Below, one piece after another: positions 12,462-17,490 of a DNA stretch of 31,782 bases (position 1 is the first letter of the stretch; every line of letters begins with the position of its first letter). The notes below the pieces were generated by a model. It saw only the letters and a program-made list of their open reading frames with translations, was not told the origin of the DNA and ran no database searches. The translations under genes were made by a program, and so were the position numbers. Source of the DNA: a virus. Its lineage: Duplodnaviria > Heunggongvirae > Uroviricota > Caudoviricetes. The stretch lies in IMG/VR virus record IMGVR_UViG_2645727991_000022. One strand, written 5' to 3'.

Positions 12462-12932
12462 TTAGTCACCAGCAGTTTCACCGCTTGCAACTGGAGCACC
12501 AGTAACTACAAATGTATATTCACGTTGTGCTTGCGAATCAAAATCACCAGCAGTAGTGTTAGTAGAGATATAACCGTTAACAACTTGGAAGTAAGAAGCA
12601 CCATCAGTACCAGTAAGGTTCTCATAGTAAGTTACACGTAGTTGTACTTTGGTTAGGTTATCTGCATAAGTGTTAAGTAGTTCTTGACCAACTGCACCAG
12701 GAATCCAGTTGACAGTTAGAGAAATATCAGGAACGTTTTTAGAACCAGGTAGTTTCTCTGCATAAAGTTCACCGAAACTATTCACAGTAGCCATATTGGT
12801 TTCTGCCCCCGCGACGGCAGGGAAAGCTGCTACCTTCTCAACTACAGTAAAGGTTGTTGCAACACCACTAACAGGAGCTAAAGCAATCTCAACTTTAACA
12901 TTGTTAGCCATAAACATATTTTTAAATGCCAT
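12462..12932 (-). CDS. major tail tube protein (tube domain only)
   Basis: 156 aa, immediately upstream of G/GT. Shares motifs (FPAVAGA ... LTVNWIP ... YTF) with the N-terminus of the 560-aa protein. Confidence 0.65.
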   Translation of the reverse strand: MAFKNMFMANNVKVEIALAPVSGVATTFTVVEKVAAFPAVAGAETNMATVNSFGELYAEKLPGSKNVPDISLTVNWIPGAVGQELLNTYADNLTKVQLRVTYYENLTGTDGASYFQVVNGYISTNTTAGDFDSQAQREYTFVVTGAPVASGETAGD

Positions 12933-12985
12933 TTGTTTTTTTCCTATTTAAAGTGGGTAACAGGTCTTGTTACCCTTCATTCATC

Positions 12986-15844: not shown

Positions 15845-17490
15845 GTACTACCACCATCATAAGAAACAAACTGGAATACATCTGTTGAATCTTTCGTAAA
15901 TGTCAGTACTGGTACACGCCCATAAGACCATAAAATTGAATCAGGCCATGATATTTTATTTGCCCCTGTGCCTTGTTTCATAGCTACAGTGAAAGATTGA
16001 GTATTCTTACTATTACCACTTGCGTTAACAATGGTAAAATTAGTTGTTCCTGCTGATAGGGTAACAGTGAATGCAGTCTTACTATCTGATAAATCAATCT
16101 CTAGGTTAGTGCCTGTGAGAGTATTTAGTGCCAATAGATCATCTACAATTGTTACTTTTGTATCAATGTTGGCTTGTAATACCTTGTCTTTATCATCAAT
16201 TTGTTTCTTTGAATATGTTCCAACATCATCATAGTTCAAAGTAATATCACTGTTTAGGGCATAGCCATTAATACGGGTGATACGTAGTGCAAATAGATCG
16301 TTACATTGAGTACGGGAGTACACATCAGAGATATCGGCGGCTACAAGTTGAATATTAGTACCAGTAAGTGCTTTGTTATTCACTAAGAAAGTTTTAGGTA
16401 CAAATGTACTGTTACTGTAGCTTAGACTTGCCATATCGGTAAGTTGTGATGCACCTAGTGTAATATTTCCGCTTAATGCCACGCCGTTAATCGTCTGAGT
16501 CTTTGCAACAAAGTTAGTATTAGTTTGTGTCTGTGAGTACACATCTAAAATATCTGCCGCTACTAAGTTTAATGAAGTACCAGATAGTGCATGACCATTT
16601 AACTGAAATACTTTTGGAACAAATGTATTAGTGATATAAGTTTGTGAGTACACATCAGAGATATCTGCGGCTACAAGGGTAATATTCCCCGTTAGCTGTT
16701 TACCATTTATTGTCTGTGTTTTTAGTACATAGTTATCTAGGCTTGCACTGGAGGCTGCACCAAGTTCTGTTAGTGTTGGTTTATCTGCACTTGTATAGAC
16801 TTTGTACCATGCACCCATAGATGTTCCGTAGTTACGGACGTTTATAATTGGTGTACCAGTTTTACTAATTACTAATTGAGTACCAAAGTTTGTATCAAGA
16901 TTATTAATACCTAGAACATCAGTACCAGTTGGTGAAGTAGTAGATGGAATCTTAATAAATCCGTTACCGTCGCGTTCTTGCCAGCTTGGGAAAGTAGTTC
17001 CATTAGAGCCAACGCCATAATCACCACGGTTTAGCGGTACTGTAGTTTCATCAAGTACACCAGCACTTACTAATGCAGTTGGTGCAAAGGTATATGTTTT
17101 AGTTACTACATTATCATAACTACCAGCAGTTGATGTAGATGTAAGAACACCGTTATACATTGCATAAGGGGTAGTAGTATCATCTGCACCTTCATCTGGC
17201 ATTTCAATTTTCATCTGAACTTCTTCACCAGAAGATACTAAATCATCTAGAAATTGGTGTTCGGATGGAACCCAATTAACGGTGATCGTTACGTCATTAT
17301 GAGACATATCACCAACTTCTTTAACCATAAATGTAGAATTATATGGTTCAATTGAAGTAACTTGTGCGGTAGCACCTACTACTGGAAATGAAGCCAGCTT
17401 TTCAACTTGTTCAAATGCTTTTGAATTTGGATCGGTATTAAGTGTGTTAGTATTAATCCACACTGTTGTGTAGTTAGTTAAGAATGACAT
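15808..17490 (-). CDS. tail protein with N-terminal tube-like domain and C-terminal tandem fibre-like repeats
   Basis: 560 aa. The N-terminal ~150 aa are paralogous to the 156-aa tube protein (VEKLASFPVVGA, VTITVNWVP, YTF). The C-terminal half holds about five ~37-aa repeats (INGxAL[ST]G..I.L.AADI.DVYS.T....FV.K). Confidence 0.65.
   Translation of the reverse strand: MSFLTNYTTVWINTNTLNTDPNSKAFEQVEKLASFPVVGATAQVTSIEPYNSTFMVKEVGDMSHNDVTITVNWVPSEHQFLDDLVSSGEEVQMKIEMPDEGADDTTTPYAMYNGVLTSTSTAGSYDNVVTKTYTFAPTALVSAGVLDETTVPLNRGDYGVGSNGTTFPSWQERDGNGFIKIPSTTSPTGTDVLGINNLDTNFGTQLVISKTGTPIINVRNYGTSMGAWYKVYTSADKPTLTELGAASSASLDNYVLKTQTINGKQLTGNITLVAADISDVYSQTYITNTFVPKVFQLNGHALSGTSLNLVAADILDVYSQTQTNTNFVAKTQTINGVALSGNITLGASQLTDMASLSYSNSTFVPKTFLVNNKALTGTNIQLVAADISDVYSRTQCNDLFALRITRINGYALNSDITLNYDDVGTYSKKQIDDKDKVLQANIDTKVTIVDDLLALNTLTGTNLEIDLSDSKTAFTVTLSAGTTNFTIVNASGNSKNTQSFTVAMKQGTGANKISWPDSILWSYGRVPVLTFTKDSTDVFQFVSYDGGSTWFGSLLMADLH
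16270..16730. repeat. tandem ~111-bp intragenic repeats encoding the fibre-like repeats
   Basis: Near-identical DNA copies at 16311-16351, 16534-16574 and 16645-16685 (GAGTACACATC[A/T][G/A]A[G/A]ATATC[G/T]GC[G/C]GCTAC[A/T]AG...), with more divergent copies between them. Confidence 0.7.

Follow-up and report, generated by a model that had tools for sequence, protein, structure and literature searches.

Receptor-binding proteins of phages are normally located at the baseplate, tail tip, collar or neck. Tube proteins with C-terminal display domains are also well known, including lambda gpV, SPP1 gp17.1* and lactococcal TpeX. In lambda gpV, SPP1 gp17.1* and the lactococcal MTP, an N-terminal tube domain bears an outward C-terminal extension, which is a small monomeric Ig, FN3 or CBM domain on the major tube protein or on a frameshift product. 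Evolved Dit and Hcp-effector fusions likewise have a tube-fold ring subunit that carries an added module, which consists of inserted CBMs on the single fixed tail-tip ring of evolved Dit and of toxins in evolved Hcp. In podophage anchor and branch systems (T7 gp17 N-domain, K1-5/SP6 and KP32-type), a virion-specific N-terminal domain is combined with a distal docking site that accepts an exchangeable enzymatic receptor-binding protein, and attachment is to the gp11/gp12 tail. A conserved part of the lateral-fibre locus of the Vequintavirinae and Stephanstirmvirinae is formed by rV5 gp43-gp42 or by phi92 gp140 and its neighbour of ~958 aa, with the two genes tightly coupled. The anchor protein of this pair is 157-222 aa long and lies in a myovirus baseplate module, and the N-terminus of rV5 gp43 resembles the head-binding domain of the P22 tailspike (PMC3606486).

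We analyzed a locus in an enterobacterial prophage sequence of 31,782 nt (IMG/VR record IMGVR_UViG_2645727991_000022), referred to here as the window, which encodes a 156-aa tube protein, a 560-aa protein and, between them, a 940-aa protein. It resembles the rV5/phi92 locus in gene order and tight coupling, but its anchor is a tube-protein paralogue with a repeat shaft, in a siphophage. It differs from the tubes with displayed domains in that a long fibre, presumably a trimer, comes from its own paralogous gene of ancient divergence and recruits a 107-kDa partner, and from evolved Dit and Hcp in that a paralogue of the phage's own tube protein bears a fibre. In contrast to the podophage systems, attachment would be at the tube stack, in a tail that is long and non-contractile. 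The first-pass annotation had offered a decorated tube, a tube-anchored fibre or a virion-associated enzyme as explanations. Our reading combines the last two: with a probability of roughly 60%, the locus encodes a side fibre anchored in the tube, and docked on this fibre is a portable receptor-binding protein that binds or cleaves glycans. A host-recognition device attached through a copy of the tube protein is not described in the literature that we searched on tube paralogues and tube-like fibre anchors. A paper on Alteromonas R7M that came up in this search proved unrelated.

All three open reading frames are on the minus strand, and their coordinates agree with the first-pass annotation. 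The 156-aa gene is found at 12462..12932 and the 940-aa gene at 12986..15808, and the 560-aa gene begins at 17490. One correction to the earlier description was needed. The middle protein had been given as 952 aa, which is the maximal ORF from a GTG at 15844, and as coupled to the 560-aa gene by a TAATG stop-start overlap. The overlap is present (15806-15810), but these two statements clash because the ATG within TAATG, if used, yields a protein of 940 aa (15808-12986), in line with all database homologues. The 560-aa and 940-aa genes are translationally coupled, and the second of them lacks its own ribosome-binding site. The genes for 97, 145, 560 and 940 aa are tightly packed with gaps of 0-5 nt; the 156-aa gene has its own 53-nt spacer and the Shine-Dalgarno-like motif AGGA. 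The 97-aa gene is FII-like and of neck type. The 145-aa protein (17493..17930, minus strand), encoded 2 nt upstream of the 560-aa gene, had no match in Pfam, PHROGs, NCBIfam or the PDB, and its gene position suggests a neck or tail-terminator protein. An NCBIfam search with eight proteins gave no match.

The location of the 560-aa gene between these neck-type genes (97 and 145 aa) and the tube gene could mean that its product belongs to the head-tail junction. The tube-like domain would then form the last ring under the head and carry whisker-like neck or collar fibres. The homologous anchor-cargo pair of the myovirus BP63 is also found between neck genes and the sheath gene. Yet gene order is a weak guide to position in the particle, and the best fold and sequence matches of the domain are to tube proteins, not terminators. 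The neck would also be poorly placed for glycan-cleaving adsorption on a tail of ~120 nm. We regard this placement as unlikely, and it is a sub-case of the tube-anchored fibre that differs in the ring occupied.

The paralogy of the 156-aa protein and the N-terminal domain of the 560-aa protein, proposed in the first-pass annotation from shared motifs, was borne out by BLASTP (E = 4e-13, 28% identity over 124 aa, residues 28-151 against 26-144), and the motifs lie inside the aligned span. Both proteins match the PHROG for major tail proteins, phrog_158 (6.5e-16 for the 156-aa protein and 7.8e-17 for the 560-aa protein). A profile of the 156-aa family matches the lambda gpV structures 6P3E and 2K4Q (E = 2e-5), and the elements of the tube fold (beta-sandwich, flanking helix and long hairpin) were found. 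Residues 1-145 of the 560-aa protein (17056..17490, minus strand) are thus a true paralogue of the 156-aa protein, and both have a tube fold like that of lambda gpV. The 156-aa gene, which is without a C-terminal decoration, is directly upstream of a G/GT tail assembly chaperone pair (11748..12424, minus strand) and the tape measure gene, in V-G/GT-H order. The slippery site A_AAA_AAG of this pair lies at 12137-12143, and the -1 frame is open from it into a 109-aa ORF; the match of the pair to PF16459 (Phage_TAC_13) is weak. Since it adjoins a G/GT pair with this frameshift site, we take the 156-aa gene to be the canonical tube gene. The 560-aa gene does not adjoin the chaperones, as the 940-aa and 156-aa genes lie in between. 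We propose that the tube proper is built by the 156-aa protein and that the 560-aa protein is present in the tail as a minor component, whose N-terminal 145 residues probably take the place of tube subunits in one ring or a few.

Another possible explanation gives the 560-aa protein the role of a major or co-major tube subunit, polymerised together with the 156-aa protein over the full length of the tail. The tail would then be clad in fibres carrying the 940-aa protein, in a manner reminiscent of SPP1 gp17.1/gp17.1* or of the Ig domain on lambda gpV. The tubes with C-terminal display domains mentioned above (lambda gpV, SPP1 gp17.1* and lactococcal TpeX) are precedents for such a tail, and the region matching the inter-ring hairpin (residues 39-63) is kept in the monomer model of the 560-aa protein. 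With the Pfam model of the lambda tube protein (PF16461, Phage_TTP_12, cut-off 26.1 bits), the N-terminal domain of the 560-aa protein scored above the threshold at 26.9 bits and the 156-aa protein below it at 19.2 bits. This difference is also a point against our own reading. However, the 819-aa tape measure would correspond to ~30 rings, and by our estimate full occupancy would add ~30 MDa of fibre and cargo to a phage of ~32 kb. The tube domains of fusion proteins like the 560-aa protein form a clade apart from the short tubes, and the one in the window is only 28% identical to its co-resident tube, which suggests that the two are specialised and not interchangeable. The 560-aa and 940-aa genes are part of the tightly coupled neck-gene block, the latter without its own ribosome-binding site, and pre-trimerised fibres could not fill single subunit positions at random. 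A fully decorated tube therefore seems improbable to us.

The remainder of the 560-aa protein past the tube domain is a fibre shaft. Residues 146-253 (16732..17055, minus strand) form a conserved second domain of the fusion family, with the motifs GDYGVGSNG, GNxFIKIP, TKTG and WYKVYT. Distant family members are 31-39% identical to the window sequence in this domain, and the homology of two members, DCP80 and L014, runs through it. Five repeats of 37, 37, 36, 37 and 37 aa follow (residues 254-437, 16180-16731, minus strand), with the consensus K.Q.INGxxLxGNITL..ADI.DVYS.T..N.F. The self-similarity of the protein at a 73-aa shift was 2.12, compared to a maximum of 0.17 in 1000 shuffles (mean -0.27, SD 0.10). 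The five units of ~37 aa proposed in the first-pass annotation are therefore far beyond chance at the protein level. The ~111-bp DNA repeats it described are visible weakly: three copies of 62 nt, spaced by 111 and 219 nt, share 63-76% identity, and Tandem Repeats Finder detected no array in this DNA. Repeat copy number, which had been named beforehand as a useful comparison, did not vary; all 11 aligned relatives carry five copies, and variation among relatives was dropped as a line of evidence. Residues 438-560 (15811..16179, minus strand) consist of a short helix and then a C-terminal domain of the phi92 gp140 / rV5 gp43 type. For the 560-aa protein, the AlphaFold2 monomer model (mean pLDDT 41) is of poor quality beyond the N-terminal domain. 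No fold was assigned to residues 146-253 because the model has a pLDDT <35 there, and none was assignable to the C-terminal domain. PDB sequence searches with the whole protein and with the C-terminal domain gave nothing usable.

The fusion of a tube domain to a fibre was not limited to the window. We found 127 representatives of the fusion family; 105 of these measure 342-1563 aa, and their tube domain spans residues ~5-145. Their genes belong to a single lineage of Enterobacterales prophages, which has essentially no cultured member, and always lie just upstream of the tube gene. The layout is as unusual as the first-pass annotation supposed, with the family present in only 1 of 50,697 phage records. 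It is not a local oddity but an old, dedicated and conserved hallmark of the whole prophage lineage, which the first-pass annotation had missed. The order fusion-tube-TAC-TAC-TMP was kept in all five further distant contexts, and 145-560-940-156-TAC-TMP in 10 of 10 IMG/VR relatives with intact flanks and in one E. coli prophage. Of six more distant relatives that we checked, five have an equivalent gene of 130-140 aa ahead of the fusion gene; none was called at this position in the sixth, L021. Distant relatives share 47-54% identity in the tube domain, 61-85% in the fibre and 76-79% in the cargo, and, judged by sequence comparison, the tube domain of the fusion co-diverges with the tail backbone. 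Near-identity DNA searches with the window found no match in phages or plasmids and two partial matches of 72-75% in E. coli genomes. A scan of the genome collection with a narrower alignment returned 5 loci, too weak a result to draw on. We gave up the idea of a phage-plasmid after an integrated copy of the element adjoining a serine recombinase was seen.

The trimerisation chaperone Peptidase_S74 terminates eight of the nine fusion members tested. In the 560-aa protein of the window this domain is absent and the gp140-type domain is in its place. The fibre part is almost certainly trimeric, so three tube domains would enter the tail together as a half-ring. A luminal cargo similar to Hcp effectors was ruled out, as S74-terminated trimeric fibres cannot be luminal. 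A trimer on a hexameric ring implies either two fibres per ring or a mixed-ring geometry, which is a point against our reading, and we found no solved precedent for a trimeric fibre on a hexameric ring.

The C-terminal domain of ~110 aa (BLAST core at residues 450-557) connects the window to the rV5 and phi92 systems. It is 45% identical to a 157-aa protein encoded upstream of the cargo homologue in a phi92-like phage (E = 2e-30), is 41% identical to the C-terminus of rV5 gp43 (E = 1e-21) and matches phrog_9017 (3.8e-30) and phrog_7760. A protein-database search with the 120-aa C-terminal region alone returned 4 matches, but this was a word-index search and is uninformative. The large proteins are homologous over their full length as well, at 30-55% identity to the rV5 and phi92 proteins. 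A gp140-type domain is encoded immediately upstream of a homologue of the 940-aa protein in six lineages: phi92-like phages, rV5, Rosemountvirus BP63, Moazamivirus 7-11, the Pseudomonas siphophage PSA28 and the T7-like Serratia phage Kaonashi. Myo-, podo-, sipho- and T7-like phages thus share the pair, each with a different N-terminal anchor. These comparisons indicate that the fibre tip and the large protein form a mobile two-gene cassette, which the first-pass annotation had missed. More than 500 sequenced phages carry the pair, some of them candidates for therapy. We propose, based on this conserved adjacency, that the C-terminal domain is the docking site of the 940-aa protein.

The 940-aa protein is aromatic-rich, as first noted, with W, Y and F making up 14.6% of its residues. 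It is homologous to rV5 gp42 (E = 1e-125) and matches phrog_2871 with 1229 bits. A profile search for glycoside hydrolase or lyase folds had been suggested as a check. No Pfam, NCBIfam or PDB sequence family matched the protein, but its structural model contains an (alpha/alpha)6 barrel, which beta-rich inserts of ~560 residues, with beta-sandwich and CBM-like domains, divide into three segments. Its identity to (alpha/alpha)6 glycoside hydrolases (CPF_2247/GH126, GH105 YteR, GH88, GH76 and GH8) is 8-12%, with no significant family match, and the GH76 match of the Kaonashi homologue is below the threshold (19.6 bits, cut-off 25.9). Residues D63, E67, D298, E300, D340, D758 and E924 and many aromatic residues are invariant among 32 homologues (42-92% identity). 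The barrel is no proof of hydrolysis because (alpha/alpha)6 barrels are also found in epimerases, terpene cyclases and thioester proteins. The model and the conservation are consistent with a portable glycan-binding or glycan-cleaving receptor-binding cargo, which is the role we propose.

Many fibres need a downstream chaperone gene, and adjacency to the 560-aa gene could therefore reflect co-folding. The 940-aa protein would then be unattached to the fibre, acting as a fibre assembly factor or chaperone or as a separate structural tail protein. Some annotators label its homologues as tail formation proteins. In the cryo-EM study of phi92, gp140 could not be placed in the density and its large neighbour was not discussed (PMC13450770). 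Against this, mass spectrometry found rV5 gp42, along with gp43, in purified virions (PMC3606486), and a 107-kDa glycosidase-type barrel with CBM-like domains is unlike the known fibre chaperones. Kaonashi has the same docking domain and cargo as the window. Its anchor of 269 aa has the T7 fibre N-terminal domain (PF03906, 4.6e-9) and no receptor-binding part, so receptor binding must be supplied by its 930-aa protein. In the stretch of Kaonashi that we examined, no gene outside the cassette pair carries a tail-fibre annotation, and one within it does. We find an unattached 940-aa protein very unlikely, somewhat more so than either the fully decorated tube or the neck placement.

The proposed tube-anchored fibre would plug a side-fibre system into a lambda-like siphophage tail through a dedicated tube-protein paralogue. 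Outward from the tube domain, the conserved domain of ~100 aa and the five shaft repeats would lead to a ~110-aa knob of the phi92 gp140 / rV5 gp43 type. This knob may be the docking adaptor for the 940-aa product of the translationally coupled next gene, whose most likely role is to bind, and perhaps also to cleave, a conserved glycan of the host surface. Reuse of the knob-cargo pair on at least four unrelated anchors suggests a conserved target such as ECA or the LPS core. This would agree with the proposal of Maffei et al. that conserved glycan-hydrolysing fibre proteins of rV5- and phi92-like phages target conserved glycans, e.g., ECA (PMC8594841). Glycan contact may be a reversible first step, ahead of a gpJ-like tip fibre that engages the final receptor. 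The most specific form of this proposal, in which Enterobacterales siphophages carry pre-trimerised fibres with three tube paralogues as half-rings and a docking knob bearing an (alpha/alpha)6 glycanase-type receptor-binding protein, is offered tentatively, at a little under even odds.

If this reading is true, a copy of the tube subunit serving as a fibre anchor would be a new solution to the attachment of receptor-binding proteins, and it raises the structural question of how a three-fold fibre is seated on a six-fold ring. It also offers a testable function for a very common but so far unassigned gene pair, rV5 gp43/gp42 and phi92 gp140 with its neighbour. If the small C-terminal domain proves to be a general docking adaptor, it would be a handle for swapping receptor-binding modules between phage morphotypes. 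Inducible systems for such tests should be easy to find, as many genomes of Enterobacter, Klebsiella, Cronobacter and E. coli carry these prophages.

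The structural module of the window is that of a lambda-like siphophage, and every gene of the region lies on the minus strand. It encodes a gpA-type terminase, a 192-aa head-tail joining protein, a lambda-type portal, a protease-capsid fusion (658-aa ORF, 18231-20207; Peptidase_S78 at residues ~76-170, major capsid protein at ~396-656), a 97-aa FII-like protein, a 145-aa protein of unassigned family, a 560-aa protein (15808-17490), a large middle protein (12986-15808 or 15844), a 156-aa protein (12462-12932), a 96-aa tail assembly chaperone (ORF 12134-12424), a 109-aa ORF (11748-12077), an 819-aa tape measure protein, a distal tail protein, a DUF6950 protein and a 1176-aa gpJ-like tip fibre. 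A slippery heptamer of the canonical -1 type, A_AAA_AAG, was found at 12137-12143 at the end of the chaperone ORF, and from that site the -1 frame runs without a stop into the 109-aa ORF. The two ORFs therefore form a canonical G/GT frameshift pair, which places the 156-aa gene in the classical tube (gpV) position. In the protease-capsid ORF, a long acidic linker separates the prohead protease from the major capsid protein, and the TTG listed for this ORF is probably not its real start. Downstream of the gpJ-like fibre gene, at a distance of about 0.9 kb and past two short ORFs, a 142-aa ORF (2824-3252) matches homing-endonuclease PHROGs (phrog_7363, 6.5e-16).

The 560-aa protein begins with a paralogue of the tube protein, as the first-pass annotation had proposed. 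Its first ~145 residues align with the 156-aa protein by BLASTP (E = 4e-13, 28% identity, 124 aa), and both proteins match phrog_158 'major tail protein' and the lambda tail tube protein Pfam model. A profile of the short-tube family matched lambda gpV structures with E = 2e-5. Residues 254-437 contain five shaft repeats of 36/37 aa, with a self-similarity of 2.12 at shift 73, where 1000 shuffles gave at most 0.17. The repeats claimed earlier thus hold for the protein, but at the DNA level their similarity is weak: copies are 63-76% identical over 62 nt, and no tandem repeats were found by TRF.

The gene between the two tube paralogues overlaps the 560-aa gene in the predicted TAATG stop-start, which is present at 15806-15810. 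The 952 aa first assigned to its product is merely the longest ORF; use of the TAATG start gives 940 aa, the size that all close homologues share. No Shine-Dalgarno motif precedes this ATG, which fits translation coupled with the 560-aa gene. The product is aromatic-rich, as had been noted (W+Y+F = 14.6%), and no sequence-family match was found for it in Pfam, NCBIfam or PDB. An AlphaFold2 model built with a 32-sequence alignment (pLDDT 85, pTM 0.76) shows an (alpha/alpha)6 barrel of about twelve helices from three separate segments, interrupted by two large beta-rich inserts; Foldseek by itself was weak. Homologues 42-92% identical share invariant acidic residues (D63, E67, D298, E300, D340, D758 and E924) and many aromatics. 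Since the barrel fold is also found in non-hydrolases, the model makes glycan binding likely and hydrolysis possible. Phages of many hosts share this family at an unusually high level of conservation, which favours a conserved target over a variable capsule. Maffei et al. reasoned likewise about conserved rV5-like fibre proteins, pointing to ECA (PMC8594841).

The C-terminal end of the 560-aa protein has relatives that accompany the 940-aa family elsewhere. Residues 450-557 are 45% identical (E = 2e-30) to a 157-aa protein of a phi92-like phage, whose gene lies just upstream of a 940-aa homologue, and share 41% identity with the rV5 gp43 C-terminus. The 940-aa protein itself is 55% identical to its phi92-like homologue and 30% identical to rV5 gp42 over its full length (E = 1e-125). 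By tblastn, the two parts occur in 529 and 531 phage records, nearly the same ones, and their genus counts match. The order of docking-type domain and then cargo, in adjacent genes, was seen in all 6 lineages checked: phi92-like myoviruses, rV5, myovirus BP63, podovirus 7-11, Pseudomonas siphophage PSA28 (after gpJ) and the T7-like Serratia phage Kaonashi. Each time, the anchor protein has another N-terminal part. That of Kaonashi is the T7 tail-fibre N-domain (PF03906, E = 4.6e-9), and the sole gene annotated as tail fibre in the stretch examined belongs to the pair; in rV5 gp43 it resembles the P22 tailspike head-binding domain (PMC3606486); in the window it is the tube paralogue. Judged from these comparisons, the fibre tip forms a mobile cassette with the 940-aa protein, a member of the widespread rV5 gp43/gp42 (phi92 gp140 and neighbour) family. 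Some metagenomic homologues of the 940-aa protein (P0192, P0196, P0198, P0203-P0210) reach 1400-1660 aa, several with an extra PF21722 domain, so the cargo core is extendable. In Salmonella phage BP63, the pair (5656-9236) is flanked by the neck genes and the sheath gene, outside the baseplate module, mirroring its place in the window.

Both rV5 proteins were detected in virions by mass spectrometry (PMC3606486), and phi92 gp140 was a candidate fibre that fitted no density in a 2026 cryo-EM study (PMC13450770). The rival on which these results bear is that the 940-aa protein is not attached to the fibre and has a structural or chaperone role; virion detection of gp42 speaks against it, and the unplaced gp140 for it.

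Tube-fibre fusions constitute a dedicated family of considerable age. In an exhaustive HMMER search, residues 1-150 of the 560-aa protein matched 127 cluster representatives. Of these, 105 span 342-1563 aa and have their tube domain at residues ~5-145; genuine short tubes (about a dozen) and a few fragments account for the others. The tube domains of the fusions group, by neighbour joining, in a clade apart from the short tubes, so the duplication is ancient. The conserved N-terminal module spans ~250 aa and comprises the tube domain and a second conserved domain. A C-terminal Peptidase_S74 intramolecular chaperone, a hallmark of trimeric fibres and spikes, was present in 8/9 fusion proteins tested. 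All five distant members inspected had the same genome architecture, the fusion being followed directly by a tube gene (149-161 aa) and two chaperone genes. Genome matches came from Buttiauxella, Scandinavium, Phytobacter and Enterobacter, and only one of 50,697 phage genomes, 'Escherichia phage DCP80', carried the family. There the order is fusion, an unlike 745-aa fibre-like protein and then the tube gene, so the slot between the two paralogues takes varying cargo. The DCP80 record (PQ671644.1) is classified as a 141-kb T4-like Gaprivervirus, while its first ~26 kb (1-26000) holds a lambda-like siphophage module with gpA terminase, lambda portal, protease-capsid fusion, tube-fibre fusion, tube, chaperones and tape measure. 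The record is probably chimeric, assembled from two phages.

No close isolated phage was found among the 50,697 records, the best capsid match being 29% identical, in DCP80. Homologues of the 560-aa protein (65-98% identity), nearly all annotated 'hypothetical', were found in Enterobacter, Klebsiella, Cronobacter, Pantoea and E. coli genomes. One E. coli copy is chromosomal, at ybhA, and the element has a serine recombinase gene at its far end. The order 145-560-940-156-chaperone-tape measure is kept in ten IMG/VR contigs and this E. coli prophage wherever flanks are present. In distant relatives, the tube domain (47-54% identical) is in step with the tube protein (53-59%) and the 145-aa protein (56-59%), whereas the fibre is 61-85% and the cargo 76-79% identical, which marks a mosaic boundary inside the prophage lineage. 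When the relatives' loci L002-L012 are compared with the window, cargo (76-98%) and fibre part are much better conserved than capsid (34-94%), tube (53-100%) or tape measure protein. This pattern suggests that the fibre-cargo module either spread horizontally not long ago or is under strong constraint. The window's GC content is 0.33-0.42, far more AT-rich than the enterobacterial genomes carrying its relatives, which is unusual for a temperate phage apparently widespread in Enterobacter, Klebsiella, Cronobacter and E. coli.

Two tube paralogues, a shaft, a conserved docking-type domain, a coupled partner of glycosidase fold and lineage-wide synteny make up the observed side of our reading, to which we give a probability of roughly 60%: a tube-anchored minor fibre that docks a glycan-contacting protein. 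The 156-aa protein would build the tube, and the 560-aa protein would be a minor component whose tube domains occupy subunit positions in one or a few rings, probably entering as pre-formed trimers (half-rings). The fibre would project sideways from the tail, and its terminal knob would bind the 940-aa protein, which would make first contact with surface glycan before the gpJ-like fibre acts. Ring position, stoichiometry and catalysis are the weakest links. Gene order hints at a neck-proximal ring, as would also suit a rival neck collar, while function would favour a distal one.

Tube proteins that display domains are known, namely lambda gpV and SPP1 gp17.1*, and a fully decorated tube is accordingly a rival to the minor fibre. 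Their displayed domains are small and monomeric and sit on the major subunit. No description of a tube paralogue as a fibre anchor was found in the literature searched. Because both the cassette family and domain-displaying tubes are known, we rate the tube-anchored fibre and its cargo as a variant of side fibre and anchor-cargo receptor-binding systems, rather than a categorically new one.
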